A stretch of 64,000 nt of DNA, from positions 47,430,001 to 47,494,000 of the forward strand of contig CM114271.1 of assembly GCA_050084515.1 (NCBI GenBank), given 5' to 3'. The translations under genes were made by a program, and so were the position numbers. The notes under the pieces were generated by a model. That model made no database searches and was not told the origin of the DNA. It saw nothing but the letters and a program-made list of their open reading frames with translations. Below are positions 6,291 to 61,515 of this stretch, piece after piece. Within the stretch, counting starts at the first letter, position 1. Every line of letters starts with the position of its first letter. Source of the DNA: Blasia pusilla (Eukaryota).

Positions 6291-9101
6291 GCTCGCATAG
6301 CGGTCTTCATTCATCAGCCCATCGACCAGTCTGGATACAGGCAATCTGCCATTCCTGTGTTTGCATGAAGACTGCCATAGTTTGTTTCTATTGTGAGTTG
6401 TCCAGGTCTGCTTTTCATAAAGTGTCGTTTCACCATTGCCTTCGCTGGTATAGTTGAGGTACGTGGTAAGCAGATTACTTACAGAGCTCAGATATTGAAA
6501 TCATTCTTGAATTCTGGACGCTTCTTTCTCAGAGGTAGAAGCAGGCATTTTCGGTGAGGATATGGCTCGCACTACATGGCTTTAATGAGTAATGAACGCA
6601 ACTAATGACAACAAGATGCCAGAATTTGAGTCCTTTGTAAGCAGTGTCGCAGGTCCTGAAGCCTCTGCTTCTTTCAATTAGAATCTAAATTTTGGTGAAG
6701 GACTGATATCTGCATGATGAGTAGTTTCATTCTTGAACTCGGGATCTTATTGCTTCTGCCTCACTGATTTCCTTGCTCTTCATATTTCGGCGTTGAGACT
6801 CTCGCTCTTCAGAACACTTCAGTACCAGTAGCCTCTCTGCGCGAGCTCTAGAAGCTTGGATTTTAGACACCAATCTTCAAAGATTGTATGTGATGTAGTC
6901 CACTGCCTCAATCTCTATTATCTTTGATAGAAAATATGGATCACACAATCACAAAGACAAACTCCAGATATTAATTGAGTGAAAGCGTAGGCATTGCAAC
7001 TTGTGTGCAGATATACAAACTATATAGCCCTGAACATTACAAACTTGCAATGATACTACAAAAGTCATCCTCTCCCATGTGCACTTGATATTAGGTCTTC
7101 GCAAAACACAACAAACTAAATTGCTACTAGGTCTTCACAAAACACAACAAACAGGATTGAACTATAGAAGTCACTAATTGTAACTTTGTAACATCTATGT
7201 AATGGCAGGAGGATTGCTTTAGGTCATAACAATGTTATTGTTGCTGTCTAGGAGTGTACCTTTAAGCGAAATTAAGGGAAGTTTCTGAAAGGCATGATGA
7301 TGGAGAAGTATCATAGATTTTTAACCTGGTTGGTCATTGTGATTTGGGATCCCATGGTAAGTTGTCAAGTTTGTAATGCGCAAATATAGTGCTACATGAT
7401 TCATACTGTCGGCCATGTTTACATAGTATTAATCAACCCAGCACATGGATATACACACCCAAAAGAAATATATTCACGCAAAGGTATCAAGATCATGTAG
7501 TAAGATTGCAAGTAAAATGGTCCATTCGATCAAATCTACAATTTCAAATGTACATGTGATACCATGTTTTGTTCACCTTCTATTATGAGGGAATCCTAAT
7601 TCTAATCCCTATCAAACATTGAAGACATTTTAAAAGTTACAACATATGAGAAATCTGGAACTTTTAGAAAATGAAAGTAGCGACATTCATTGAAAATGAG
7701 TTCCATGAATGTTGCTATATTCAACTGGTTAATTGTCGGTTATGTATTCATTCTTGAATATAGGGTTTCATGAATATAGCAACACATTGAAAATGAGTAG
7801 ATGGCAAGGTCCTCACAGCGCTAGATAACACATATCACATCTATTTAACATGATGTAATATCTTATTTACCTCTAGCGCTGTAGGTGCCGTCATACCGGC
7901 AATATCTTCCAACACGTACTTGCCCTTGGATCCATCTCCTTTATCTCCACCTAGAGAAATCAATGTATCCGCATGTCATTTTTTAACATTACAACTACCC
8001 TCCGTGTAGATCCCTCCAAAGAGATCTGATACTCTCGCACCCTTATCCTAACGTTGCCACACAACATGGGGAGTAGTAACAATGGTATCCAAGGATATCA
8101 AGTCACCTTCCGAAGAGCGCAACCGTCACCTGATTGTGTCTGCTTCAGTAGATAGGCAAGGGTCCATGCTTGCTTCACGAGCTTGTCTGCACTCCTGTGC
8201 AAATCAACGCTCGTACCCAACAATGGTGAAGAGGTCTCTACTCCATGGGAAGGGACACCCATCATGATATGTCTCTCTATGGGACTATCTGCTATTGGGA
8301 CATCCTCTCCATGTGTGCTCAACAACTCCCTTGCCAACTATTCATTTTCCATGAATGTTGCTAACACGATCATTGCATTACCTCATGGACCATCACTTCA
8401 TCTTGCAAACCACACAAATAAATGACTTACCCTTCTATCACTTGATCGCCATGCTAGGCAATATGCAACCGTCTCTTCCCAAAAATTGAGGGTGAAACCA
8501 AGGGTATATAACACCACACTCCCTACCAATACATTATATGACTTTATTGGTGTCGTAATCCTATGATTGTGCATAATCAAATGCATGTTATGTCATTCCA
8601 GTTACGCAATTTATACCAATTTGTCATTCCAGTTGCGCAATTTATATGCTATTATCGTCCTGTAAGCTTCGTTAACCAACTCCAAGCTGCCTTACCACTT
8701 CATGGGTCTCACCCAGCCCATTTCCGCTCGCACAAATGCACACTCAAAAATTCATGTCATTCACTACAGTACACTACATCCCATTTTGTTAATCACGAGA
8801 AACCTGATCCCCTCCGCAACCGAGCTCATCGGCTCCTCAACTCATTCACCTCATTACAGCTTACTCGCACACACACACACACCCTAGTTAGGTTCACTAC
8901 ATTTTCTCACAGTTACACGGCCATTGCTTTTCAACGGCTTACTTCATTCATATTCGCTAGTTCACAATAATAATCCTCGTGGACAGTTGAGGGCCGCATT
9001 CTTGTTCCCTTGTGGAAAAATCTTAAGTAAATCCCTTATGTCAAAAAACTCTACATATTCAATGATAATATAAGCAAAACATGGAAGTAGTCAAATGATA
9101 A

Positions 9102-18212: not shown

Positions 18213-18422
18213 CTAGTAAGGTCTTCTATTTTCGCTCTACTGGGACATGCACCGTAAACGGCAAATAAATACGTGTTTGAAGAATTTTAGTTGATGTGGA
18301 ATTCATGCATGTAAATTTAATTTTTTGATGCCCGTAGTATGTGAAATATTTTTTTGCAATCATTTTGTCAAATAGAGAGATGTTTGCAAATCAACACAAG
18401 GCACTCTATAATAATAATATAT
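18213..18422 (-). mobile_element. Non-autonomous Helitron-like element copy (family A, ~200 bp), diverged
   Basis: Begins (a)ctagtaaggt, the reverse of the CTAG 3' end. Ends tgtttgcaaatcaa...cactctataataataatat, shared with copies at 38.5, 43.7-44.1, 49/60 and 61.2 kb. Confidence 0.55.
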
Positions 18423-24340: not shown

Positions 24341-31903
<7,563 letters not shown>

Positions 31904-34900
31904 GGCCTTGCTTCAGTTCCCAAACAGCTCTCGCAATATGCAAAACCCTTATGTTCCGACTCCACCGTCCGTAACAGCCCGTCCCTGCACGCCCTCTATG
32001 AGTTGTTGACCTGACACTTTGAAACTCGCGGCCATTCTACAACCTACATCGCACAGCTCATTGCCTTGTAGCCATCAAATCCCCCACTCCGTCGGACGTA
32101 CATGCTGAACATCTGCGCCCGTTCAGACCATGGGGCAAAGTCCTCCAGCCCATGATCTGGATCCACCAGCGACGCTCGCATCGGATATCACACTCAAATC
32201 AGTCCCCCTGGTTGGCCTTCTGCATATATCGCATCGCATCCCTTCCCTGAAAAGCTGAGATACGGAAACCCACTGTGAGGCGACGAGTAGAACTCGCATG
32301 GCGACGCAACACTTCGATTATACTTGGCCAATGCTTGCAAAAGCGGAAAACCTACGACTTCGATGTTAAGACTGTACAAAACTCGTCGTCGTGATCGAAG
32401 GCCCTAACAGCTCCACGGATCGAGGAAGGAGAATTCCAAGACCAAAGCATCATGACCGACGGACGGCGAATATTGATCGGCAGCAGAGCTAGATATTCCA
32501 CCTGATTGGAAATTAGTCATACGAATCAGGAAGCAAATCGCACCGGTGCTCTTCAAACATGAACAGGGCATGGGTTGAACTCATCAACGGGCAGATGAGG
32601 TGCGAGAGACAGAAGGGAAACTAGTCCCACCCAATTACAGATTACAGCCTCGCCGACTCCGGATCAGAAAGACAGAAGGGCGGGGAAATTAGGTTTGTGA
32701 TTATGATACGTGAGAGCGAAGCGCAGCGGGGGCAATTGGCGCTCCATCAAGCCATCCGGCAGAATGGAAGCACACGGATGACGAGACCAGCGGGGTTGCA
32801 CAGCAGCGGAGAGCGAATCGGAAATGTGGAGGCAGCGCAGAAGTTGGAAGTACGAACCTGAACGCGGATGCCGTCGGCAAAGACGCTATGCAGACGAGTG
32901 CGTAGTAATGATGAGGAGGAACGAGAGGATGCAAGTGGCTGCAGATGATAGGATGCAACAGGAGGAAGGAGACTCACGGAAAGGGAACGAAGCAACGGAG
33001 GAAAAAAAGAAGAAGAATCAGCAGCCATAGCCTGTCTGTCTGTATTTCATAGACGCGAGACTTCTGTCTCCAATCCCCGCTTCCCTCCTGACCTGCCCAC
33101 TTCCCTATTCAACACCACCACCAAACATAAAAACGAGCCTTGATTTTAGGACCTCCCAAGGAAGACAAATGCCGCACGCACATGACACTGAATGAAGTCT
33201 ACGAGCCGATGCATGGTGGCGAAAGCTGATGAGAGATGCCGAGCAAAAGCGCCACGGTGAGAAATGGCTCTCCTTGCATTTCCGGTGAGGGCAGGGCAGG
33301 GCAGGGCAGGACGAAACAACGAGCCCCTCCTATCGTCGGCCCCCACAGTGCAGCACGGAGCCCCGAAACCGGGGGGGGGGGGAGAAACTGAGGGATGGAA
33401 AACGGCGAATCGGTCAGCTTGTCAAGTCAGCAGCACCCGTGGAACCCGCTAGACGACGGATTATTTTTACATCTCGTACAATGGATACATACATGGGGTG
33501 ATGGAGAGTTTTGAATTCCGTGGAAAAGGAAAGCAAAAAGTACCATCCTCTTCTTGCTGGGAAGCTTGCCTGCCCGGCCACCCGGCGCGAAAGTAAACCT
33601 TGCCCGACGTCCAAGTCTCAGGACACCACGCGGCGGCCTCGACGGAACAACACTTCGCGGAAGAGCGACCGCGTGGCATCGCGTTCTCCACCGACAGGTG
33701 CCGGTTCCTCGGTCGAATCGCCGACCGTCCCAGGTGAGTATACCGCACGGCTTCTACCGCCCAGCTCCCGTCTCCGGTACTGTCGTTGCGTCCTGCGGCG
33801 AGGCCGCGCCCGCCCAAATTCGAACCATTCTGCCCGTGCCCCCGTGCCGTGCCGGTACACCCGGCCGACACCCCCAATCCCAAGAAGATCCTTGCTAAAG
33901 AGACCCTCTCCAAATTAGCATCCTCGCCTTCGTTTGGCCGCCAGACACCGGGAGTCTGCTAGCCACTACGAATCGCGGACATCAGGTGCGGCTTTTCCGT
34001 AGTGTAGTAGCACATATGTCGCGGCGGAGTTTCTCGGCATGTGTGGTACATCCCCAGTCGGAACAGGAGCGCCCTCTGCGCGCAGTTCACGCTTACTTTC
34101 ACTCACGTTCCAAAAATAGGCCCCGAGTGATTGCGTGCAGGGCGGGACTGCGCTTTCCGTCGTCGCCTCACCCAGATACAGTACACAGCGACGTAGATGG
34201 CTTGGCACGGGACGGAACCCTCCTCGCTGCTTACCCTCCTCCGTCTACAGTGAGCATAACCCATCCGCCAGCCAGTCCAGTCCCGTCCACAACACGACCG
34301 ACAGAACGGAACGGAACTGGAGCACACCCCCAGACGCATGACGGCAGTGACGACTCCATCTGTTTGTCGGTCATCGGCAAGGTTCTCACGACGGACGGAC
34401 GGGACGGACGTGAATGCCGTTCTGGGCACCGCACGTGGCTGTCCGACGAGGCGGACAAGGCCGATGGGGTCCGCCAGACGGAGTCCGGGCAGCCGAAAGC
34501 GCCAACGTCCCTCAACTGCCACTCCACTCCTCTCCTCTCCCCAAGCAAAGAGAGCGAATGGTAGAGAGTTTCCTCGGGCCTGTCTTTCTCGCCTTCCCAC
34601 AGGCAGGGCTATTAATAGGCGTCCATAGCAACGAGCGGATAGATCACAGCATAGTCAACTGGAACGCATGCCCCCCCCCCCGTCGGCCTCCTCTGAATCC
34701 ATGACCTCACCCGCTTCGCCCACTGCTTGCTATCTATAGATCGCATGTCGACCTCCTCAAAACAAACGGTAATCCGTTCAGTGGGCGAGTCCGTCCGTCC
34801 GTCTCCACAGATTTCAATTTCTCGTCCCTCCTTCCCTCCCTCGCCCACTGACACAGACAAAAGCAGCAACAAGGAGCATGTGCCCCTGCCCTCGGACCCG

Positions 34901-38470: not shown

Positions 38471-38665
38471 GCCCGTGCCATGCATGGGAGTGAATACTAA
38501 TCATGTTGCACACAAATGTGTTTTCTTGTTGCCCATAGAATAGAAAACATTTCTTATCGCCCCTAAACTAAAACTAAGAAACATTTTTTTGTTGCCCGGT
38601 TGCCACATGGCAAGTTGAGAGGTGTTTACAAATCAAGAAGACACTCTCCAATAATAATATGGATA
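38471..38665. mobile_element. Helitron-like 3' terminus on + (cccgtgc..gcatggg hairpin, then CTAA|T) abutting a partial family-A copy
   Basis: gcccgtgccatgcatgggagtgaatactaat at 38471-38501, followed by catgttgcac...ggtgtttacaaatcaagaagacactctccaataataatat. Confidence 0.5.
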
Positions 38666-40059
38666 TGATACAATATCCAATCAATCCACAAATATCAGTA
38701 ATATTAAAAGTTAGTGATCTTAAATATTCATCCTCTTTAATATACTAGAAATTTTCTTGCCCATTACTAGTATTGAATAATTATACTTAATAAAAAAATT
38801 TATCTGTCATTTATCTCATAATTATCTTTACTTTTTGATACAAACTTACTTTCCCTATATTATAAGGGCACTATAAGGTAAAAGAATATCAAAAAGGCAT
38901 GCCAAAATATCTTCTTCCTTCCTTCAACGAACGAGTGTGTCCCCTTTGGCATCTAAGACGTGGAAATGTCACAAATCCATTGATCATGGTCGGTCCATTT
39001 GCTCTCTCTATGAGTCTCCAATTGATGCAAACTTCCTCTATAAGATGGATAACAATCATGAAGCTCGATCTCATTCACATCTAAAAAATATCTCTTCCCC
39101 TCATCTCAATGTTTTAGGAGCCATAGGGAAAATGTAATAATCTTCATCCCATCATATACCAAATCGCTCGTGTTAGCCCTCAATACACTCCTCCATGATA
39201 TTCTCCTCAACGTAGTGATTGGATGATTGAATCTACCCACATATGTCACCAAAAAATAGGAGATTGACATCTATATATTGTCGATGGCGAGAGTTGTGCA
39301 CAGTAATAACATGAGGGGACAAGAGATACTACGAGAAAGTGAGGAATATATTAACCAACAATGGGAGTATATGGCACCAACTTACAGAAATAGTAAGTTG
39401 ATAGTCTTTTTCCCTGAAGACAAGGGATATTTTCGATATCACATCTCTTGTCAATCAATCTCTTGTCTACCATGAATAACCCGTTATTCGTTCCAACACC
39501 TATAGTGGATTTTCACTGTGTATCTCCTACTCCATTTCACTTCAAGAAAACTAGCAAGGATGGTAGATGGACATCCCCATGGGGTTGCATCGCACTTTAG
39601 GTAGACCTCTACTAAAACACCTATCAACTCAATCGGGTTATGTGTGCCAAGAGAAATGCAAATATCCTTACGGGTCCAAGCCTAAGGTCACATACCTTCA
39701 TTATGTAATCGCATGTCTTAAAGACTAACATGAGATGCTCGAGTGTCCAATGTTGGCAACTCGACCTTGATTTTTGGGGGAGGCAATGGTAGTGATAGCA
39801 TGGATTGTATAATCCAACATTAGAGTCTTGTCGACTAGCAAATAAATCATTGCCCACATAGTCTTCAAAGGTTGTATTGACTTATGTGTTGGAGGATGCA
39901 TTTCTAGAATCCGTATTAGAGTCACGGATCAAGGTCCACCTTGACTTGGGTTGGTGTCAAAACCCCAATGTCAATCAACCAATCTATCTCGTGCCCTAGG
40001 TTCACCCCCGTGGTTCCCAAGGAGGGGTTTAGGTTCCATACATCCTTGGAGATACTCCC

Positions 40060-43734: not shown

Positions 43735-44090
43735 GGTATAAGCCGTGAAGGGAAGAGATTAATGATGTTGCACATAAATTCAAATTTTTTCTTGCTGCCC
43801 GTAGCATGTGAAACAGTTTCTTGCCGCCCAATTGCCACATGTCAAGCATAGAGGTATTTGCAAATCAAGAAGACACTGTCCCATAATAATATAGATAAGG
43901 TGCTTGTGCGATGCACGCGAAATAAAAGAAAATTTTGAAAAGATAATGTATAGCACGTGAAGGGAAGAAATTAATAATATTACATGCAAATTTTCTTGAT
44001 GTAACATGTGAGACATTTTCTTGATACCAATTGCCACGTGTCAAACATGTAGGTGTTTGCAAGAAGGCAATACGATAGTATAAATATAGA
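43735..44090 (-). mobile_element. Two head-to-tail family-A Helitron-like units (junction ~43895)
   Basis: ...cccataataatataga|taaggtgcttgtgcgatgcacgcg... joins the end of one unit to the hairpin end of the next. Confidence 0.65.
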
Positions 44091-49038: not shown

Positions 49039-49102
49039 CTAGTAAGGTGCCCGTGCGATGCATAGGAAATAAAAAAAATGTTTGAAGAACTACTGTATAG
49101 CA
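49039..49102 (-). mobile_element. Hairpin/CTAG end of a family-A Helitron-like copy, split by the LTR retrotransposon; remainder at 59966-60119
   Basis: actagtaaggtgcccgtgcgatgcatagg...gaagaactactgtatagca. The consensus continuation (agc.cgtgaa...ttaatgatgttgcac) resumes at 59966. Confidence 0.7.
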
Positions 49103-49350
49103 TGTCATGACTGTTAGGATAGATCGGTGGGATCTAGTAGAGCGTCTGCACGAGTAGTGGAGGACATGTCCAGGAGGTCGAGGATGACCTGTTGAGGCCC
49201 TGGGAAACGTGAGAGAGCAGGTTTTCCCTTCGTTTCGGCTCATTTGGAGCCATATAGAGAAACTTACTATTTTGGGTAAGTTTCCATGTTGGGGATGATT
49301 GACTTTCCACTTTGGGAAGTGGCCCTTGACCCGCTACAACAGGTCAAGAG

Positions 49351-51011
49351 TTTCAGGGATTCCCCTTGAAGCTGAGTTCTGATCTGTGCGTCTTGCGCTT
49401 GCATCATCCTCTACTTGTCTCATCAAGCAAAGGAATCCTTCCTCTAACTCGGCCAAACTCGTCCTCGTGATGGCGTTCACCAACTCCATCTTCCTAGGAA
49501 CCTCACGAACCAATCTGACGTTCGTCCGTTTTCCGTTAACCAAGACGCTCAACCTCAAAGGTCTTCGCCTCAGTTCCACCTCATATGCATCCAAGAATGT
49601 GTTCCCCAAGACTCCGTCGATTCCGTCCATATCGCAAACTGTGAAATTCTCTTTCAACTCAAATACTCCGTATCCCACAACCAGCCCTAAAACCAGATCT
49701 GAAGTCCGGTGGGACTTGGCTCTCGCGAATCCTACCCTAATGGGTTCATCCGCCTTGGTGGTTGGCAATCCCAACGTTTTCACGATTCTCGGACTCAAGA
49801 ATGAGTACGAAGCATACGTATCAACGAGCAACATCACATCGTGATTAGCGATCCTGGATCCTAGGTAAACCAAATCGGGCGTTCTCTTGGTGACTTGGAG
49901 AGATGTATCTAGATCTCCCGCCGATGAGTGCTTAGCAGCAAACGCAATCATACTCGGTTTACTAACCTAGGGCCTAACACATTCCTTAGCCATATGCCCG
50001 GGTTCGCCATAGTTGTAGCAAATCACTTTGGCATTCGTTGACTTCCTGAACGACGGCCCTCTTGGCTTCGCGTTGAGTTCCACTTGTTTCGCTGCTGGGG
50101 CAAGAGACCCCTCCGTGGTCGCGCTCACCCCCATTCCAAACCCTCTTGGATGTCCCTTTGTTTTTCGGTAACTTAGAAAATATTTTTGGCTCAAAGGGTT
50201 TTGGTGTTGGACTTCATCGTCCCCAATACGCTCTGCTAGCCTCAGAAGATCCGCGCATGTCTTTGGGATGTGAGGCATACAAAAGAGGGCCTTTTCGGCG
50301 CTCGATTTGAGTCCACTTAAGAAGATCACCTTTTTCTTATCTTCATCCGAGGAGAGTGCACTCATGAGTGCACTAAACTCTCGCACATAAGCGCCAAGGG
50401 ATCCGCTCTGGCGCAACCTTACAACCTCCATGCCATCGCGATACTCCTGATATTCCAGAGTGAATTGGTTCCCAATCAACTCCTTGAAATCTTCCCAACT
50501 CAACGTTTTCCCACAGCCTAGATGTTCTTTACGCTGATCCGTCCACCAATGGAGAGCGTGATCCTTCAGAAACGTGACCGCTACAGTCACCTTGTCTTGT
50601 TCATCTGCCTTTTGCGCTTTGAAATAAAGTTTTGAGTTCCGTTAGAAACTCGCTCACTTTCCGAGAATGCCCCATTCTTGTGAATGGCGTTGGCAAATTT
50701 GTCTTACAAAGCTTCTTGCCGGAACTAGAGGCTCCATCTGACTTGAATTCCATTATCACCTTGCTTTGTTCGGCCATCTGGTCCGCCATCACCTTCATCA
50801 ATCCCATCATTTGGACATAAAAGGCTGGATCGTTTGAGTTCGGAACCGAAGGTCCCGCGGAAAGATGTTCGGTTGGAACATCCTCATGTCTGGGACTCGG
50901 CACTTCGGGAGTCGCAATTTCCACCTCAAGCTTTTGGTCCGTCATTGATTCGTCTCTCGAATTTTTTGCTTTAACTCCCGATTTCCTCCGTTCTTCGCCC
51001 TTGGTCGCCAT
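49351..51011 (-). pseudogene. gag-protease of the nested gypsy element (frameshift ~50600, stop at 49967-49969)
   Basis: AVTFLKDHALHWW...SWEDFKELI...LRQSGSLGAYVREF (gag). Degenerate zinc knuckle CYNYGEPGHMAKEC. Protease LLVDTYASYSFLS...IDGVLGNTFL. Confidence 0.85.
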
Positions 51012-52143
51012 TTGCGAGTCTTCACTTTCTCAAATCTCCTCCTCGCCTCTTGCGTTCCTCCTCGGGCGTCGCGGTCTTCCGGCTACCTTGAGTTCTCCCC
51101 AAACGTCCACATCTTCTACGACCCCAAGTTCACGCTCATCAAGGTTTAGTTATGATACCACGGGTCCTGCGCCTACTCTCCTTGAACGTTAATCTTGTTG
51201 TTGCGGAAGCGTGCGTTCAGTAGGTCACGCTCTCAACGGTGATCTGCATCCAAATACGCACTGTGGCTAGTCGGGTCTTGGATCAATCAGCGGGCTAACT
51301 TTCCGAGTTCTCGTCTCGGACTCTCATCAAGCTCAACCTTCCTAGTTTCGCGATTTACAACACGGGCAAGTCTCGGAAGACTTGGGACAGACTTTCTGGT
51401 CGGTTCAAGAACCTGAAACAACATTTCGCGCTTGGCGATTCCAACTGTCTGATGGAAATCCAATGAGTTCCTCACCAAGACTCGCACGAAGTGAATCTGG
51501 GGTTGGAATCCAAGTGTGGCGTACAAAGTCCACTCCCTTGGATGAGGTTTGGGTTTCGAGTTCCAACGCCAAACTCCCGTTCCATCGCGTGCCTCTGAAA
51601 CGCCGTTTGGCACTCAAAGTGAGGATTCATGTTCTGAGACATCTCCTACATTAAGGGAAAGACACCTGGGCCTCTCCAATTGGCTCTCAACCGGATTGCT
51701 CTCACAGTCGTGTTTGGCCAATATCTCAGCCTGTACTTATGCTTTTTCTAAGATCTTTGATGAGTTGGAAGCGTCTCAAGATAAGTTTTCCAACGCGCCC
51801 TTACTTGTTCCAAACGCATTTTGGAGCTCAACGTTATGGTCCTAGACACAGTCAGATTCTTGAAACGCTAGTCGTGTTCCAAACTGGTTCTCACCTCTTT
51901 GGCAACCAAACTCCCAAGACTCAACTCATCTCAAGTCTTGGCTCACGTTTGGTCTAGGTTTCTTGGTCGCGACCACTAACCCATGAAACACACAACTTTG
52001 TTCCACGTTACGTCTCTTAGACTTTTCCAAGAGACCTTTCCAAACGCCTCTCCTAAGCGCAAACCTCGCAGCGTGAGTTCACTTGAGTTCTGATATTTCG
52101 CTTGGCGCTTATTTGGTGTTGTTTGGTTATGAGGGTCGCGACA
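49351..52143 (-). mobile_element. Nested, inverted, 3'-truncated Ty3/gypsy element (LTR start, gag, aspartic protease)
   Basis: The minus strand starts TGTCGCGAC at 52143, with a PBS-like TGGTATCA at ~51160-51153. gag and protease follow, and the element is cut off before RT. Confidence 0.8.
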
Positions 52144-53390
52144 GCTTGGGAGAGGGAAGGGGGTATACCTCCAAGAGAGAGAGCTTGAGAGCTCATTCTC
52201 TCTTTGTTGAACCTCTTGGCATGAGGCGGCGGAGCTATGGTCTTGCTTGCCTTGCGTGTGTAACCCAAGCCTCTCATTAGGAGAATGGGTTTGGTTTGAT
52301 ATTGAGAGACATATGTGAGAGTGCACACATGTGAGAACTATAGTGTTGTGAGAGAGATTTGATCTTACTTTACAAAGAGAGAATGAGAGAATGAGAATGA
52401 GAGAGCTTTATGGGGGAGCTTGCTGGTCGCTCGCTGTTTTTTCAGGTTGGGGACCGTGTTTCCCGTTTAGCGGCTCATGGAATTGCTCACCAGAGCAAGG
52501 GCTGCTTTGATTGTTTTTTGCATTTGCCGATTTTTCGTGTGGAAGAGTGGCACGGGGAAGCGCTGTCCAATTTTTGATAGGGATTGATTATGGGGACAGG
52601 TTGCCCTATGTCGGTGCTCTCGGGAGCACCATGTAGCTTGCTGATTTGTATTTTTATAGGTTTTACATTTCCGTTGGGAGAAATCAGCATGGAAGCGATG
52701 CCAAATTTTGTGTAGCAGAAAGAGACATTGGGGTTTACCACAGTCCCTGTCAGTTTTTACTGAAATGTCTCATTCTAAATATTTTTTGACATTGTCGTAG
52801 ATCGTGAAGTTATGCAAGCTATGCAATTTGGAGTTGCGAGAACAAATTTATGGTCATCGATCTACTCGAGTTCTTTGAGTGAAATCCGTGAAAGACATAG
52901 TGTCATAAAACACGCATTAAATCACATACAATCAAGCCAAACCCACACCACGATGGGAGAATCCAGGTTGAAGCTTGCGCGAACCATCATAGCCAAGAGC
53001 TCTACTCACTACCAAGGTTAACTCCCAAGGCAAAAGGCTCAACTCAAAGAACTAACTGTTCTTTGAGTGCACTCCACACTATATCCTCCAACCCATGAGC
53101 GGGCCCTACTGGAAAAGTCACCCTCAACTGAGTAACCCCCAACCCTATGTATGAAACCGCATCTCTACCTAGACACTATGGCCCCACATAAGGTATGGCC
53201 TCTACTAGCACACTTTACTCTACGACATAATTTGTATGGTCATGACAACCGGGGTAGAGGATCGCGTAGGTTTTCAGGTGCAGTAGGCACGATTGAGTTG
53301 CACAATTTCATAGCATAGTTAAGGAGTTCGTGCGACTCCCAACCGACCTGGAACTCTTGAGAGTTCAATCTGCTTAGAGCATGGAACGGT

Positions 53391-54300
53391 ATGTTCCAAC
53401 ATTTAAAGGGGCGCCCATGGATGAATACCATGAGTTCTCTCAAAGATATGCATGTGAGATCGAGGCGTGGAGGCTCTATTATGACCCACATTATGTGTCA
53501 TGAACGGAGCCGTTCTCAGATGAGGAGGAGGAGTCAGGAGAGGCTACTTCCTCTTCCACTAGTGACATTTTAAGAGGGGTGACTTGCACTAGAGCAGTTG
53601 CATCGTCTAGTCGGGTTCATCCTAGGTTCAACCATGTGGTTGAGTTCTTTGCTGAGTTGAGGGCGAGCTACCAAGGGGTACGGACGGAGAAGTTGCGGAG
53701 CATCCACGACTTCCAGAGGCGCCAATGTGAGAGTTTGCGTGAGGCTTACACTCGCTTGCGTCGGTTGATCAACGTCACTCAGGGGTGACAGAGGCTGAGG
53801 CTATCCAATCATGGTATGCGATGTTGGACCGGACCCTACGGACACAAGTGCCGGATGGGATGCTTCTTATGAACACCTCCCCTACGTTGAGAGATTTTTT
53901 TAGGACCGTCGAGAACATTGAGCGCAAGATGGCGGAGGACAGCGTAGCCACCATGGGTTTTGGGCGAGAGTAGTCATGATTGGCTGCACCACGTGTGCAG
54001 CAACGTGGACTTCGAGATAGGTCGACTGTGGCACCACGAGCTCAGGAAGGATATTAGGAGGCCGTGCCACAGAGACCTGTGCCTTCATATGCGGCTCAGC
54101 AGCAACGGCCTACTATTACTTGTTGGTCATGTGGTGTAGCCCATCATCAACGCGGTTGAACTTGTCAGGGTCGTGGATGTGTGCCTCAGCATGGAGGAGG
54201 AGATGATGGTGGACCATGAGGTTATCCGTGTGACTATTATTAGAGGTATGGTCATACACGCGCCAAGTGTTTCAGTTTACATCATGAGTTACATCCAGAC
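53391..54300 (+). pseudogene. gag of the DNMT-bearing retrotransposon (disrupted)
   Basis: FFAELRASYQG...FQRRQCESLREAYTRLRRLI is a retrotransposon gag-like signature. Two degenerate zinc knuckles: CWSCGVAHH (~54121) and CDYY*RYGHTRAKC (~54229). Confidence 0.65.
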
Positions 54301-55061
54301 CAAGGGCCAGAGAGGGCACTAGAGCGAGTAGCCGGTCCGGGTAGGTCTAGAGATCGTGCACCAGGTGGTCCCGTTGGGGGACGAGGAGCTGGAGTTGCCC
54401 GACAGGGTGATAGAGCTACCCGTGGAGGAGGTAGAGTACCACCACCTAGACGCGTCGAGGAAGACGCCGGACATGAGGCTGTGATGGCTCCTTAGATACA
54501 ACAGCTAGAAGAGCAGATTGCCGCTATGGCATTGAGGTTACCCGATGTCGGATCCATGGCATTGACATCATATGGAGGAGTTAGAGATATGGAGGATCCT
54601 GGTTGGATGTGCGGGGTTGCCGAGATGAAGGCCGCCGTAGTTGTGATGCGTGGAGCAGCCGTAGAGTTGGATCCACAACGAGGGGAAGCCAGAAAATAGA
54701 CTAGGCTTCCTCAGTCCTTCACGTTATCCGAAGCGATGAGGATCCCATCGATGGATCCTCATAAAAATCCTGGAGAATTGGTGTTGTTGTTGGTGTGCAA
54801 GCACGGAGGGCGATTGGAGAAGTGAGTGCGATGACGCTTCTTGTTGATATTCAGGAAGGGCATGTGTTGAGCACGTTGTTGGGGGCGGTCATTGTTGTGT
54901 ACCGCACTCCTTTATTTTATGCTTTCGATGTTATGATGTTGGGGGGTACGCCTGCCGAGGATTTTCGGCTGGCCGCTTCACAATGTGAGCGCCGAGTTGG
55001 AGTTCTTGCATCATGTTCAGAGATGATTGCAGAGGAGGTGCTAGACCTGCCCTTGGAATAG

Positions 55062-55514
55062 ATGCTCCGGCCGTCCACGTCAGATTCATGGCAGGCTGCG
55101 GCTGCTAGGATGGCGGAGATGCCCGCTAGACCCGTGATAGAGCCTACCATGGCTTCTCCTGATGTTGTGTTGCTGGATAACCGAGGAAAGGTCTTCCAGT
55201 TGGTGAGTCCCAGAGGTAGAGCTTTTAGTTCGCAACGCGTCTTGTTGGATTCAAGAGCACAACCCCTGATGTTGGGGAAAGCGTCATTCAAAGGATTGGG
55301 CTTGACGAGAGCTGATGTGGAGCGTTGTTCATTTCGGATACATACATCCTTGGGTGGAGCGAGTACCACACAGTATATCACCCGACAAGAGGTCATGGTG
55401 AGGATTCGCCCGGGACATTCTACAAATGAGTCTGTGGTGCGAGCCAAGGCGATAGTGATTGATCCAAAGTCCTATGACGTCCTGTACCCGATGGGGTTTT
55501 CCTTGGATTACTAG
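55062..55514 (+). pseudogene. Retroviral-type aspartic protease (catalytic DSG appears as DSR)
   Basis: RVLLDSRAQPLMLG at ~55236-55277 and downstream SYDVL. Same frame as the methyltransferase. Confidence 0.75.
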
Positions 55515-55934
55515 GAGGAGTGAGCGTCCTATAGACCAAGATGGCAGTCAGGTGATGGGCGCCTTAGCTCATTACCCGTTCGATTCACAGGTGCATTGAT
55601 CGAGCGACGGCCAGGAGAGGTGGTGACCTTAGCAGCATTTAGCAGTGCCATCACTTGGCCTAGTGATGTGATTGAGGGACATGTCCATGCAGAGGATACT
55701 CCCGTTTCTGATATGTTTATGGAGAGGAATGTTATGGTAGCCCCATCATTGCGTGGAGGAGAGGTGTCGTTGTGGGGCTCGACTGAGGAGCTTCAATGAT
55801 TGGTAGATGAGCACGTGCAGACCGCGTGGAGCGAGGCGTTTGCACCGGAGCGTGATGGGTCTGAGGAACCCGAGGTAGCAAGGAGTGCTACGATGACACC
55901 CTTGGATACCACACCCATTGCGTTGTGTATCCTA

Positions 55935-56885
55935 GAGGAGGGTATTCGAGTGTCAGATCTCTTTGGAGGGATTAGCACCGGGTTAGTTGTTGTTTTGCAG
56001 GCAGGACTGCGAGTGCAGCAGTACATGTATGTGGAGAGTGATGATGTAGCAAGGCGCGTCTCACTATGACATGTGGGGCAGATACGCCTACGTTTTCCCG
56101 ACTTATTGTCTGCATCCGCGGTAAAGGGATACCAGAGTTCCCTACCCAGGGATATTTCATTGCCGGGGGCGCAGGACTTAGAACGGGTAGGGACCATTGA
56201 TTTGGTCATTTCCGGTTGGCCATGTCAGGGCCAATCGAGTGTTGGACAAGGCAGCGGGTTGGCTGACACTCAATCCACGTTGTGTTGGGAGATGTTGAGG
56301 GTCTTATGGTAGTTGCAAAAGCACTAGTCTCCTTCTCCAGCCTACATTCTAGAGAATGTTCCGATCTTAGGAGACTCCATGTCACGGGTGGTGACGAGTG
56401 CTCATCAGGTGCGTGCCTAGATTGGCCCAACCTTGTTCTTGGATGCGGCAAGTGTAGGTTCTAGAGCCCATCGCCAGCGTCTATGGTGGACCAACTTGGT
56501 ACCCCATACGATGTTACGGAGGGCGTAGGCGAGAGTGGAGCGCCCCTCCCATTTGTTAGTGGATTCCATTGTGGATCCAGGTTGTCGATCACAAGCAGTG
56601 AGGCACGATGATCGACCACCGTTGACTATGGTCAACAGGGTAGGCAGGCCGCAGGTAGCCTTGCCCACGTTTGTGAGTTTTTTCGCTTCCTATGCATACA
56701 AGGAGGCAAGTCCTGGCTTGGTTTGGGATGACCAGGTTCAGCGGTTGGTGGAGCCCAACGTCGACGAGAGAGAGCGAGCGATGGGATTTCCCATAGGAGT
56801 GACGGCAGTACTGTTAGTGTCAGAGGCATCACGACACCATGTCTTGGGTTAGGAAAGGACCTGAACTGCTTGACATGGATCCTCA
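55935..56885 (+). pseudogene. C5-cytosine DNA methyltransferase domain within the retrotransposon polyprotein (six in-frame stops, no frameshift to 56852)
   Basis: One frame gives motif I DLFGGI (55956), motif II YVESD, motif IV DLVISGWPCQG (PC at 56220-56225), motif VI YILENV (56352), motif VIII AHRQRLWW (56472), motif IX ERERAMGFP (~56781) and motif X VLG* (~56850). Confidence 0.92.
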
Positions 56886-57299
56886 CCTTGGGAGTGGTTG
56901 AGCAGCGCCGTATGAGATCGTGACAGATCACAACGGTTGTGTTGGTGAGCCCCATGCCTACTGAGACGCTGGAGGCAGTGGCTGGTGGCGAGACCCGAGG
57001 AGATCTACACACCAGTGGAGATTGGGAGAGACACCCTTGGACTTCTTCGGATGTTTTGCAGATACGCTAGGAGATGATAGCCACAACATCGAGCGTGGTT
57101 CTGGGCAATGCACATGGAGGAGATCAAAGTTTGCATTTGGCTACAGGAGAGCGTCCGAGTGTTATTGTTGGAGACAAGGTTGCACCACTGATACCCGCGT
57201 CGGAGAGTCCTACCGTAGTCACGATGGAGACTTTGGAGCCAAATACGGGCCCTAAGAGGAGAGCGGCGCCGGATACATCAGTTCCTCAGGAGTTATAGG

Positions 57300-57590
57300 A
57301 GCTGCTTTGCGTTTAGCATGGAGGATTTGGGTACGCTGAAGGGACCGGGGATCCGCATTGAGTTGTCGAGTGATATGTTGATCTTCCGATGACCCTAAAG
57401 GTATAGTGATATGGAGAGGGCTCTGATTTAGAGTATGAGCCAAGAGTTGGTTGGAGCAAGACTAGTGGAGATGTCGCATGGGAAGTATGCATCTGCCAAT
57501 GTCATGCCCGCCAAGAAGGATGTGCATGGCAACTGGACAGATAGACGGATATGTGGGGATTACCGACCTATCAATCGGCAGACGAAGTCT
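57300..57590 (+). pseudogene. N-terminal reverse transcriptase remnant; the YxDD core and RNase H are missing (internal deletion)
   Basis: FAFSMEDLGTLKG...GKYASANVMPAKKDVHGNWTDRRICGDYRPINRQT is a gypsy RT N-terminal signature. The sequence then jumps to integrase within ~160 bp. Confidence 0.85.
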
Positions 57591-57749
57591 TGGAGTGCCT
57601 TGGTACTGGCAGCGTTGCGAGCACCGTGCTAGAGAGCGGGATCGGATCCTACATTAGGACAGACGGTTCCGTTGGGAGGGGACATATGTTTTGAGGGTTT
57701 GGGAGGATGGTAGAGTATGCTTAGTGCCGCATCCTTCGCAGAGACCATG

Positions 57750-58790
57750 ACTAGTGCAGCATGCCTACGAAGAGTTTGGTCACTTTGGGGTGAAACGGAC
57801 GTACAACTTGCTCCAGATTGAGTATTGGTGGCGAGGCATGCATACTAACGTTCAACAATTTGTTGCCATGTGCATGGTGTGTGATCGGGTCCGAGCATCG
57901 TTCAATGCTCCAACTCCATAGTTGCATCCATTACCGATCACGGGCTTAGGATATAGATGAAGTTTGGATTTTGCCAAAGACCTTTTCCTTTAACGGAGCG
58001 TCACAGTCGTTATGTGTTGGTGATGGTCGAGCACTTCTCAAAGTGGATCGAGTTGGTTGCATTTTCTGACAAAGCAAGTGAGGGAGTAGCTTATGCCTTC
58101 CTTGACGGAGTGTTGAGTCATTATGGCGCATCGGCTGAGGTGTTGATAAACCAGGGTACCGAGTTTCGCGGTGAGTTCCAAGCCTTGTGTGATCAGGCGC
58201 AGATCGACCACAACACGACTTCGCGAGATCAACGCGAGTCGGATGGATTAGCGGAGAGAGTTGTGCAGACGGTGAAGAGGGGTTTACGCAAGTATGGCTT
58301 GCAACGAGGTCACCTAGGAGATTGGGACCTCTAGTTTCCATTGTTGGCGATGGGATACAAATTCAGCATGCAAGCATCCTTAGTGTCTTTTTCACCGTAC
58401 TTGCTACTTTATGGCCGAGAGCAAGATTTACCTACGGCCATTCGTCGAGATGCTGGTGAGGTGCTGGACCTTGATGATCTAGATGTATGGATGCAAGCAT
58501 TTCTGAGAGGGCTGAGTTGTTTCGGAGAGTGATGCCAATGGCGTTCGAGAACTTGGCAATTGCGCAACATCGGGATACGTTGAGGTATGCGACTGTTCGC
58601 GGTGGTGATTATCGACCAACTATCCGGAGGTTTCATCAGGGAGATTATGTCTACTTGCAGGAGACAACATCGACGACGTTGGATGTGACCGCATGGTGCA
58701 CTATCCTGAGAGTGCGTGACGTTTTGCCATCCGGTGTCCTCTTGCTGGAGGGACGCGGTGGTATGGTATGGAAGGACCATATGCGTAATT
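57750..58790 (+). pseudogene. Integrase (zinc-binding region plus DDE core), disrupted
   Basis: GHFGVKRTY...YWWRGM...CMVCD...LHPLPI...SLDF...YVLVMVEHFSKW...NQGTEF...DGLAERVVQTVK...FSPYLLLYGRE. Confidence 0.92.
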
Positions 58791-58863
58791 GTGTGCGCCA
58801 TGTCACCTCCCTAACATTGATGGTACAATAGATCCGATCTCTGCAATAGTTCGTGCAGGCTTG

Positions 58864-59007
58864 TGTTGTATGTTGTGTGGTTTTGCTCGAGGTGCGGCCA
58901 TGATGCTATTCTGTGATGGATGTTCGAGAGGTTGGCATATGGCATGTCTGACGCCACCTCTCACTAGGGTTCCTCGGGGACGATGGATGTGTCCCAGATA
59001 TACATAG
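58864..59007 (+). pseudogene. PHD finger at the polyprotein C-terminus (last Cys appears as Tyr)
   Basis: [45 protein letters not shown] has the C4HC3 pattern with the typical CLxPPLxxVPxGxWxCP. Confidence 0.9.
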
Positions 59008-59322
59008 AGGAAATACTAGGTAGGTTTCAATTCCGACTTTTTCGGTGACATGGATGATAGGAAGGCAACTAATGATGGGGCCACATGAGCATCCGACCTT
59101 TCTCCTCTTAGCGTCCTTGAGATGTATGTGGTGGTAGGTAGGGATAGATGGCTATCTGGAGTTAGAGGAACCTAACCACCAACTAGGCGGCAATTGGAGA
59201 TATTTTGGTACTTCTCGCCTCTGTGTATGGATACCATGAGTTAGCATGGGATCGTGTGTGTTTGTATGTGTGTTCGATGAGAACGATGTATGTTGTGTAG
59301 CGATGTGTATATGCACGACTGC

Positions 59323-59839
59323 TGTCACGACTATTAGGATAGATCGGCGGGATCTAGCAGAGTATCTGCACGAGTAGTGTAGGACATGTCCAGTAGGTCG
59401 AGGATGACCTGATGAGGTCCCCGGAAACCTGAGAGAGCAGGTTTTCCCTTTGTTTCGGCTCATTTGGAGCCATATAGAGAAATTTACTATTTTGGGTAAG
59501 TTTCCATGTTGGGGATTATTGACTTTCCATTTTGGGAAGTGGCCCTTGACCCGCTACAACAGATCAAGAGCCAAGGAGGTGACCTGCGAACATAGGTTAC
59601 CGTTGAGAGGGTTTGGGAGGGGGAAGGGGGTATACCTCCAAGAGAGAAAACTTGAGAGCTCATTCTCTCTTTATTGAACCTATTGGCATGAGGTGGCAGA
59701 GCTATGGTCTTGCTTGCCTTGTGTGTGTAACCCAAGCCTCTCATTAGGAGAGTGGGTTTGGTTTGACATTGAGAGACACACGTGAGAGTGCACACATATG
59801 AGAACTATAGTGTTGTGATAGAGATTTGATCTTACTTTA
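59323..59839 (+). repeat. 3' LTR, truncated after ~517 bp
   Basis: Starts TGTCACGAC and is colinear with the 5' LTR halves. It retains 40 bp (59571-59610) that the 5' LTR lost. Confidence 0.85.
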
Positions 59840-59965
59840 TTGGAGATATTTTGGTACTTCTTGCCTCTGTGTATGGATATTATGAGTTAGCATGGGATCG
59901 TGTGTGTTTATGTGTGTGTTCGATGACAACGATGTATGTTGTGTAGCGATGTGTATGCGTATGAG

Positions 59966-60331
59966 AAGCCCGCGAATGATAGAAATTAATGATGTTGCAC
60001 ATACATTTATTTTTTTCTTGCACCCCCTAGCAGGGGAAATTTTTTTTGCTGCCCAGTTGCCACGTGTCAAACAAAGAGGTGTTTGCAAACAAGAAGACAT
60101 TCTCCCATAATAATATAGATAAGGTACCCGTGCGATGCACGAGAAATAAAAAAGTGTTTGAAGATCTAGTGTACAGCCCGTGAAGGGAAGAGATAACGAT
60201 GCTACATATAAATTCAATTTTTATTTTTTTTTGTCGGTTGTAATGAAACATTTTCCTGCCGCCCAATTACAACATGTCGAGTAGAGAGGTGTTTGCAAAT
60301 GAAGAAAGCACTCTCCTATAATAATATAAAT
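59966..60331 (-). mobile_element. Remainder of the split family-A Helitron-like copy (59966-60119) plus a head-to-tail second unit (60120-60331)
   Basis: Junction ...cccataataatataga|taaggtacccgtgcgatgcacgag... has the same form as the one at ~43895. Confidence 0.7.
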
Positions 60332-61195: not shown

Positions 61196-61515
61196 ATAGT
61201 AAGGTGTCCTGAAATAGTAAAGTTTGTAAGAACTAGTGTTCATAAAGAGATTAACGATGTTGTAAGTAATTTTTTTTTCACTGTCGGTAAGATGTGAAAT
61301 ATTTTCTTGATATCCAATTGTCACGTGCTAAACATAGAGGTGTTTGCAAATCAAAAAGGCACTCCCCATAATAATATAAATATGTTTACTTGACATGTGG
61401 CAATCGGGGAAAAAAATGTTCCTTGGTATATGGGAAAATAGACTATGGGAAAATATTTCCCATTTTGTAAGTATAAAGATTTTATTTTTTTGTGCAACAT
61501 GATTAATCCTTTCAA
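61196..61515. mobile_element. Family-A Helitron-like copy (61196-61381) followed by an inverted partial copy (~61390-61515)
   Basis: tagtaaggtgtcc...ggtgtttgcaaatcaaaaaggcactccccataataatataaat. Then ttgacatgtggcaat...gtgcaacatgattaatc, the reverse complement of the internal part. Confidence 0.6.

Follow-up and report, generated by a model that had tools for sequence, protein, structure and literature searches.

A PHD finger directly behind a retroelement integrase, on an element that also holds a DNA methyltransferase, raises the question of what such a finger is for. It may guide the element to a certain chromatin state, it may act on the methyltransferase, it may bind a partner other than a histone, or it may not belong to the element at all. 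This case is found in the liverwort Blasia pusilla, for which the whole stretch of 64,000 nucleotides around the finger was analysed (the window; positions are counted from its first letter). We are close to certain that the segment 58864-59007 is the PHD finger with which the integrase of an old and dead Ty3/gypsy-type element, of the kind called "Gypsy-DNMT3", ends at its C-terminus, and that this element has the anatomy listed below. The window copy is a fossil and of little weight alone, and it is the family that matters more: in green algae and early land plants, one Gypsy lineage of wide distribution has the PHD finger in place of the chromovirus chromodomain, and a DNMT3-like enzyme is found in it repeatedly, at two positions of pol. 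Taken as a whole, the explanation that we prefer, namely the PHD finger of a dead Gypsy-DNMT3-type integrase which in active members would serve for tethering to the H3 tail, is moderately probable.

The finger and the dead element around it

The PHD finger itself is confirmed. A Pfam scan of the 72-residue translation of frame 1 on the plus strand, which stays open between 58789 and the stop codon at 59005-59007, gave PF00628 with 42.7 bits and E 5.6e-11 against a gathering cut-off of 24 bits, and the C4HC3 pattern starts at 58864, just where the original prediction had placed it; thus 58864-59004 encodes a genuine PHD finger, with a signal far beyond chance. Seven of the eight zinc ligands are present in the window, and the eighth is a Tyr where the relatives have Cys, which agrees with the earlier premise that the domain is to be repaired by changing the final Tyr to Cys. 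The same piece matched 91 chain sequences of the PDB at E<=0.01, and its AlphaFold model (28-row alignment) has a mean pLDDT of 80.2, rising to block means of 90-95 for residues 31-70 (most of the finger), and a PHD fold with 49 PDB matches at E<=0.001.

The dead element around this finger spans about 49103-59956 on the plus strand. From a three-frame reading, Pfam and tblastn with relatives, the domain order in the window is gag, protease-like region, DNMT3-like methyltransferase, reverse transcriptase (RT) stub, integrase and PHD finger:

53504-54280, plus strand: putative gag, decayed (weak Retrotrans_gag match, E 0.051, below the cut-off; placed by position and three-frame reading)
55062-55514, plus strand: putative aspartic protease with an active-site-like D-S-R at 55248-55256 (frame 0 translation)
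55935-56852, plus strand: DNMT3-like cytosine-5 DNA methyltransferase domain, pseudogene (PF00145, E 3.3e-7, above the cut-off)
57261-57590, plus strand: reverse transcriptase region, N-terminal remnant (tblastn with P0155 residues 459-572, P0002 residues 9-121 and P0158 residues 32-142)
57587-57631, plus strand: deletion junction, at which about 480 codons are missing, those of the RT core and RNase H of relatives (tblastn with P0155)
57628-57984, plus strand: integrase N-terminal zinc-binding (H2C2) region in frame 1, interrupted by a stop at 57748-57750 (70% identity to P0161 residues 269-387 by tblastn)
57957-58334, plus strand: integrase catalytic core (rve), frame 0, with a terminal stop at 58332-58334 (PF00665, E 3.4e-8, 34.1 bits, cut-off 32.6)
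58335-58831, plus strand: integrase C-terminal region, in frame 0 to about 58496 and from 58502 on in frame 2 (P0161 residues 386-657 by tblastn)
58790-58795, plus strand: frame change from the integrase C-terminus (frame 2) to the PHD finger (frame 1), inside a run of TG dinucleotides (three-frame reading and tblastn alignment of P0161)
58864-59007, plus strand, including the stop at 59005-59007: PHD finger of C4HC3 type with Tyr instead of Cys as the last ligand (Pfam, PDB sequence matches, model and fold matches)

The protease-like open reading frame and eight other pieces of the window gave no Pfam family at E<=1, and a Marchantia relative, P0167, aligns to the window by tblastn from 55452 onward. 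In the methyltransferase stretch, motif I (55956-55982), the P-C-Q of motif IV (56214-56231) and the E-N-V of motif VI (56352-56360) can be read from the translation, in which no fewer than five in-frame stops fall within 56067-56528, and by tblastn residues 3-287 of the relative P0155 cover 55950-56816. The domain order of P0155, given by tblastn and Pfam, is DNMT, RT, RNase H, integrase and PHD, and the protein runs colinear with the window except for residues 573-1051, the part with RVT_1 and RT_RNaseH, to which nothing in the window corresponds by tblastn. In the PDB, P0155 matches the Ty3 Gag-Pol polyprotein best (E 2.2e-94), and the pol order of the relatives in Pfam is RVT_1, RT_RNaseH, Integrase_H2C2 and rve. 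The H..H...C..C pattern is still readable in the integrase zinc region of the window, and from there to the PHD finger the copy changes frame three times, which leaves the finger outside the frame of the integrase and the element a pseudogene. Judged from its sequence, the copy appears to be inactive and would do nothing, with the RT core and RNase H deleted, the integrase frame-shifted and holding stops, the DNMT interrupted by stops and one zinc ligand of the PHD finger lost.

The borders of the element are marked by repeats, which are arranged as follows:

49103-49350, plus strand: terminal repeat A1, first part (93% identity to 59323-59570)
49351-52145, minus strand: foreign DNA of about 2.8 kb which interrupts A1 and holds the gag and zinc knuckle of another retroelement (repeat comparison and Pfam)
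52146-52372, plus strand: terminal repeat A1, second part (94% identity to 59613-59839)
59193-59313, plus strand: short repeat B1, directly upstream of A2 (95% identity to 59839-59956)
59323-59839, plus strand: terminal repeat A2, uninterrupted, matching both parts of A1
59839-59956, plus strand: short repeat B2, directly after A2 (95% identity to B1)

In A2 the blocks that match the two parts of A1 are only 42 bp apart, as against about 2.8 kb in A1, and the foreign insert holds an open reading frame at 49967-50641 on the minus strand with Retrotrans_gag (E 1.5e-10) and zf-CCHC (E 9.6e-4, 19.6 bits, just under the cut-off of 20.8). The resulting layout, A1-internal-B1-A2-B2, is that of split direct repeats, and the copy does not have the form of two plain long terminal repeats. 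To read it with plain LTRs one has to suppose that the 5' LTR has been truncated and that a further, partial LTR follows the one at the 3' end, which is less parsimonious since no copy of repeat B was found upstream of A1. The stop of the PHD reading frame lies 186 bases before B1. Elsewhere in the window, an exon of PI4K-beta was observed at 30230-31912 on the minus strand, with 75-76% identity to Marchantia proteins, 69% to Riccia and 64% to Calypogeia, by which the host is placed among the liverworts.

Integrase and PHD finger as one protein

A word-based homologue search with the 72-residue PHD piece alone returned 34 candidates, none of them significant. Relatives were retrieved through the integrase C-terminus, and the family sample consists of the 255 proteins fetched. 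With the integrase C-terminus of the window (58478-58831) phmmer found 748 proteins at E<=1e-3, and in 113 of the best 150 of these the PHD piece comes directly after the integrase C-terminus. A second search, with residues 700-1073 of P0002, gave 164 matches; for the 120 of them that were listed, PF00628 is precomputed in 119 and the chromodomain PF00385 in none, and Pfam found no chromo match on the pieces of the window either. The closest relatives share 67-75% identity with the window over integrase and PHD finger by tblastn, and the named hosts are Marchantia polymorpha, Volvox, Tetrabaena, Pleodorina, Astrephomene and Chromochloris, with no named protein of Klebsormidium among the matches.

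The PHD piece of the window is matched in 216 of the 255 family proteins, where finger and integrase lie in one open reading frame, and the full C4HC3 pattern with all eight ligands is kept in 188 of these 216, the other 28 being truncated or decayed. Among the 22 relatives which were chosen for length, Pfam places a PHD finger after rve in all 22 (21 above the cut-off and the 22nd just below it), and a PHD finger was also found in 18 of 18 further relatives. Since the PHD finger follows the integrase in one reading frame across the relatives, the in-frame fusion which the original prediction expected of intact copies is genuine, and its placing of the finger at the integrase C-terminus, the position of the chromodomain in chromoviruses, holds as well.

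It could be supposed that the finger is a host exon, or a chance open reading frame beside a decayed integrase, and lies outside the mobile element. The two facts that may be quoted for this are that in the window copy the frame of the finger (frame 1) is not the frame of the integrase C-terminus (frame 2, ending at 58831), and that in Marchantia the annotation of the gene model Mp_7g09570 names no more than a PHD-type domain protein. However, the tblastn alignment of P0161 puts the frame switch at 58792-58795, in the middle of a motif which is continuous in the relatives; the finger lies within the terminal repeats of the element; and Mp_7g09570 itself aligns to the DNMT and integrase pieces of the window element, so the gene model is a mis-annotation and, by this alignment, a decayed piece of such an element. 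With the fusion in a single reading frame in the 216 relatives, both the host-exon and the chance explanation were rejected, and the probability left to them is negligible.

The class of the finger and what it may read

With the finger belonging to the integrase, its class has to be judged by its neighbours. Among the best 60 of the 91 PDB sequence matches, the first is the second PHD finger of CHD4 (E 6.6e-15), and the other top ones are DPF2/DPF3 PHD2, PHF12, KAT6A/B, KDM5A/B PHD1, Lid, PHF21A, KMT2C/D, ATXR5, AIRE, BAZ2A/B and UHRF1. In the fold search the model superposes on DPF2 PHD2 with an rmsd of 0.5 A over 44 columns at 48% identity and reaches a target TM-score of 0.80 with the ATXR5 PHD-H3 complex, and the other best matches are DPF3b with H3, BAZ2A with an unmodified H3K4 peptide, MOZ, UHRF1, KDM5B PHD1 and BHC80. 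The entry titles of many of these fold neighbours name readers of the H3 N-terminal tail, and most such PHD readers prefer unmethylated K4. Chains of ING, BPTF or TAF3 type are not among the matches listed, neither in the best 60 of the 91 by sequence nor in the fold search. An ADD-domain origin of the finger was also considered and rejected: no ADD chain of DNMT3 or ATRX is among the best 60 of the 91 PDB sequence matches or among the fold matches listed, and the finger follows the integrase and not the DNMT.

The fingers of the relatives largely point in the same direction. In readers of H3K4me3 the Trp of the aromatic cage sits two residues before the His ligand, a position at which the 188 relatives with full C4HC3 have Gly in 167 cases and Trp in none; the residue directly before the His is aromatic in 184 of the 188. 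Two features that hold the H3 N-terminus in readers of this kind, the P-x-G-x-W loop and, ahead of the third Cys, a hydrophobic strand, are conserved in the relatives. With the H3K4me0-type readers, which are its best matches by sequence (E 6.6e-15 to 1e-8) and by fold (rmsd 0.5-1.3 A, 38-51% identity), the finger shares the hydrophobic strand before C-D-x-C, the aromatic residue before His and the pattern C-L-x-P-P-L-x-x-V-P-x-G-x-W-x-C; unlike them, it is fused to a retroelement integrase, has lost the last ligand in the window copy, and belongs to a subgroup with a non-acidic loop. This loop, between the second and third Cys, is where acidic residues contact R2 and K4 of H3 in the H3K4me0 readers DPF3, KDM5 and BHC80. 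The loop of the window copy is free of acidic residues, and in its subgroup, the 41 members whose PHD finger is terminal, the loop is neutral to basic, with a mean of 1.10 acidic and 1.59 basic residues; at least two acidic residues are found in 11 of these 41 members, compared with 63 of the 81 relatives which have a C-terminal tail of at least 250 residues. Because of this neutral or basic loop, the ligand of the terminal-PHD subgroup may differ. By sequence and predicted fold, then, the finger resembles the PHD class that reads the unmodified H3 tail, which is the class that had been proposed for it, with DPF2/3, ATXR5, BAZ2, KDM5 PHD1 and BHC80 as neighbours in sequence and fold.

For active members of the family, a mechanism can be proposed on this basis, for which we see about equal chances of being right and wrong. 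The finger would tether the complex of integrase and cDNA to nucleosomes through the H3 tail, so that new copies would land in chromatin without H3K4 methylation and away from active promoters; the logic would be that of the chromovirus chromodomain with a different mark being read, and the DNMT3-like domain, from another part of the polyprotein, would have its own, separate action on the DNA of the element. Like chromoviruses, whose chromodomain-directed integration is the published precedent as far as the sources covered describe it, these elements have an extra histone-reader domain on the integrase C-terminus and a presumed chromatin-directed integration; unlike them, they use a PHD finger rather than a chromodomain and would probably read, instead of H3K9me, the unmodified H3 N-terminus. 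Should the finger indeed direct integration through the H3 tail, the family would offer a second natural example of retrotransposon targeting guided by histones, and chromatin maps exist for Marchantia and volvocine algae.

Two other ways of using the finger have to be weighed against tethering. Instead of reading H3, it may serve as a protein-interaction module whose partner is not a histone but, for example, a chromatin or replication factor of the host or another part of the polyprotein. The acidic loop that is not conserved in the subgroup of the window would suit such a role, as would the UHRF1 PHD finger bound to PAF15 and to Stella among the nearest folds and the PHF12 PHD finger lying within the SIN3B complex. 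Against it, the top neighbours in sequence and fold are all chromatin proteins, most of them solved with H3 peptides, and the loop and strand that hold the H3 N-terminus are kept; we regard this role as unlikely, though deserving to be kept in mind.

The other use is the coupled module of reader and writer, in which the PHD finger senses the H3 tail and licenses or directs the DNMT on the new copy in the manner of the ADD domain in DNMT3. The finger is of a class that reads the unmodified H3 tail, as the ADD domain also does. All 71 DNMT-bearing proteins of the family have a PHD finger as well, although this count is biased, every protein having been retrieved through the integrase C-terminus or the PHD region, and the place of the finger is constant while the DNMT sits at two different positions of pol. 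According to the passages covered of a study of retrotransposon DNMTs (PMC5890265), these enzymes methylate CG de novo. Yet the finger is fused to the integrase and not to the DNMT, and in the architecture of the window RT, RNase H and integrase lie between the two, and for this reason an ADD-like coupling is possible but less likely; in addition, ADD-type chains are missing from the best 60 of the 91 PDB matches, and three relatives (P0207, P0027 and P0131) have the PHD finger with no DNMT detected in the regions covered. Such coupling of finger and methyltransferase is thus quite improbable in our judgement, and tethering through the H3 tail is kept as the preferred use of the finger.

The methyltransferase and the place of the element among known ones

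That the element carries a DNMT, as originally predicted, is supported by the PF00145 match in the window and by the DNMT of P0155, whose closest solved chains are DNMT3B/3C/3A (E 1e-6), followed by M.HaeIII (4.4e-5) and plant DRM (1.4e-4). With a family-specific jackhmmer search, the domain was detected in 71 of the 255 family proteins. Its place was compared in the 54 proteins having RT, integrase and PHD finger: in 3 it precedes RT, which is the arrangement of the window, in 25 it lies between RNase H and integrase, and in 26 no DNMT was detected. In 25 of these 26 an upstream DNMT is undetectable because fewer than 220 residues of the protein precede RT. P0207, in which RT is preceded by 612 residues and no DNMT was detected among them, is a reasonably clear DNMT-less case in which the PHD finger is present, and in P0027 and P0131 no DNMT lies between RNase H and integrase, yet the PHD finger is present. 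The pairing of PHD finger and DNMT is frequent in the family, with counts that are biased by the way of retrieval. The C-terminal piece of the window DNMT matches the DNMTs of the other architecture with E down to 2e-21, and this match across architectures suggests one capture of the enzyme followed by rearrangement.

With regard to known systems, the idea is less novel than the original prediction implied, as PHD-bearing retrotransposons and Gypsy-DNMT3 elements have both been published already. KnitGypsy-Dnmt3 of Klebsormidium, in the parts of its description that were covered, combines the DIRS repeat structure with the Gypsy domain composition (de Mendoza et al. 2018, PMC5890265), and the streptophyte "Gypsy-DNMT3" is named again in bioRxiv 10.64898/2026.05.21.726589. 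Compared by description, the Blasia element is like KnitGypsy-Dnmt3 in its Gypsy domain set, its DNMT3-like domain inside pol, its DIRS-like split direct repeats and its streptophyte host, and unlike it in that the host is a liverwort and not Klebsormidium and that the window copy is dead. The element of the window is therefore a new, dead member of the Gypsy-DNMT3 retrotransposons, already in print as a kind, and it has numerous intact relatives in green plants and algae. The word PHD is absent from the main text and three supplements of PMC5890265, Fig. 4c aside.

For the finger, the passages covered of several publications give precedents: PHD is "a common accessory domain" in Chlamydomonas transposable elements (PMC8557442), the domains of Gypsy-7a_cRei include PHD and INT (PMC9940879, Fig. 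6 legend), and REM1 (Perez-Alegre 2005) is, by the papers citing it, a PHD-bearing retrotransposon of green algae. PHD and Chromo are given as the reader domains most often fused to transposable elements (bioRxiv 10.1101/2021.11.30.470311), such fusions with PHD are also credited to Kapitonov and Jurka 2003, and a 2026 preprint describes LTR elements which combine a chromodomain with adenine and cytosine methyltransferases. Like Gypsy-7a_cRei and REM1, as far as their descriptions reach, the family has an LTR retrotransposon polyprotein with PHD as an accessory chromatin-reader domain; those two have green algae as hosts, and the named relatives of the integrase-PHD region of the window include volvocine algae and Chromochloris. 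The passages covered on Gypsy-7a_cRei, REM1 and the PHD fusions of transposable elements do not mention PHD together with a DNMT, and no text naming both PHD and DNMT3 on one element was found in the literature searched, to which Fig. 4c of PMC5890265, the bioRxiv supplements, the REM1 paper and Craig's 2021 thesis did not belong. For one relative, P0239, the automatic annotation of its source already has an integrase, a PHD finger and a C-5 methylase together in a single protein.

A broader proposal would be that selection has paired the integrase-PHD finger with the DNMT3-like domain throughout a Gypsy clade of the green lineage. The finger would direct new copies to chromatin unmethylated at H3K4 and the methyltransferase would then mark them, whereby the element would choose and write its own chromatin state, and chlorophyte tails would add a Tudor-like barrel and a second, methyltransferase-like domain to make up to four epigenetic modules; we put this forward tentatively, as an unlikely possibility. 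The literature searched gave no case of PHD, DNMT, Tudor-like barrel and methyltransferase-like tail in combination.

The tails in question lie outside the window. A tail of at least 100 residues after the PHD finger was observed in 138 relatives, and 121 of the 138 match the tail of P0041, for which tblastn found no match in the window. Pfam on the post-PHD tail gave only a PTM/DIR17-like Tudor with E 0.049, below the cut-off. In the ESM Atlas the tail had only sub-threshold matches, 0.87 to bacterial and phage hypotheticals with one cluster at 26% MTS, and among named clusters only F-box ones at 0.80-0.82, which is chance level. The alignment of the tails has a consensus with a D-P-W-x-G motif and later a P-P motif. 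In the model of P0128 (pLDDT 76.7), a small beta-barrel follows the PHD finger and is followed by an alpha/beta domain; in the fold search the part of PHD finger and barrel pairs with the Tudor-PHD cassettes of PHF1 and UHRF1/2, and the C-terminal part pairs at E about 1e-3 with SAM-dependent methyltransferases, namely PsiM with SAH, a putative O-methyltransferase and Rv0187. From this model, a Tudor-like barrel and a Rossmann-fold methyltransferase-like domain in the chlorophyte tails may be taken as a lead rather than a result.

Terminal repeats and pol organisation

The ends of the Ty3/gypsy-type element are not plain LTRs but split direct repeats, in which two copies each of terminal repeat A and short repeat B are arranged as A1-internal-B1-A2-B2. 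Such split direct repeats are uncommon in elements having a DDE integrase. The layout agrees with that of KnitGypsy-Dnmt3, a Klebsormidium Gypsy element with a DNMT3-like domain, in its published description (PMC5890265).

Features of the element and of its interruption
49103-52372 and 59193-59956: split direct repeats, A1-internal-B1-A2-B2
49351-52145: insert of ~2.8 kb in repeat A1, with a minus-strand gag (Retrotrans_gag, E 1.5e-10)
57587-57631: site of an internal deletion of ~480 codons
58789-58812: short motif N-C-A-P-C-H-L-P, joining the integrase C-terminus to the PHD finger

The gag within A1, which carries a CCHC knuckle scoring just under the Pfam cut-off, derives from another retroelement, and no further domains of that retroelement were seen in the insert. 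In pol, the internal deletion removed the RT core and RNase H, while the DNMT and integrase-PHD ends remain. Among the relatives, the DNMT occupies two sites in pol, before RT in 3 proteins and between RNase H and integrase in 25, and the element shares the before-RT site with those 3. Since the DNMT sequences of both positions are clearly related, their comparison suggests that domain shuffling within the clade moved the DNMT between pol sites.

Sequences flanking the PHD finger

The linker motif preceding the finger is strongly conserved, its second Cys being invariant in 28/28 aligned sequences, and by analogy with the pre-PHD of UHRF1 it might form an additional zinc knuckle; this region is poorly modelled in the predicted structure (pLDDT 51-57). 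C-terminal to the PHD, many chlorophyte relatives (P0041, P0128, P0028 and others) carry a conserved tail of ~330 residues that is absent from the window's element, and 121 of 138 tails are homologous to one another. The tail matched no Pfam family and is predicted from structural modelling to consist of a Tudor-like barrel and a Rossmann-fold methyltransferase-like domain, and it may represent one more epigenetic module on the chlorophyte elements.

Related fragments and other features of the window

The Marchantia polymorpha gene model Mp_7g09570 (P0167), whose sole annotation is that of a PHD-type domain protein, aligns with those parts of the element that encode the DNMT, the integrase C-terminus and the PHD, and judging from these alignments it is therefore probably a decayed retrotransposon fragment and not a host gene.

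Other features of the window
30230-31912, minus strand: large exon encoding part of a phosphatidylinositol 4-kinase beta, with a PIK domain and charged repeats
59970-60331, 43743-43992, 38578-38670, 61271-61382, 18313-18421 and 49043-49101: copies of a short dispersed repeat
8062-8559, minus strand: weak match to the N-terminal part of P0167 (tblastn, 31% over 170 residues, E 1.6e-15)

The kinase exon shows 75-76% identity to Marchantia proteins, and this level of similarity assigns the window to a liverwort that is allied to Marchantia without being Marchantia itself. The short dispersed repeat, with 72-85% identity among its copies, borders both sides of the element and recurs throughout the window, and may be a MITE-like family. 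The minus-strand match to P0167 may be a piece of another related element.
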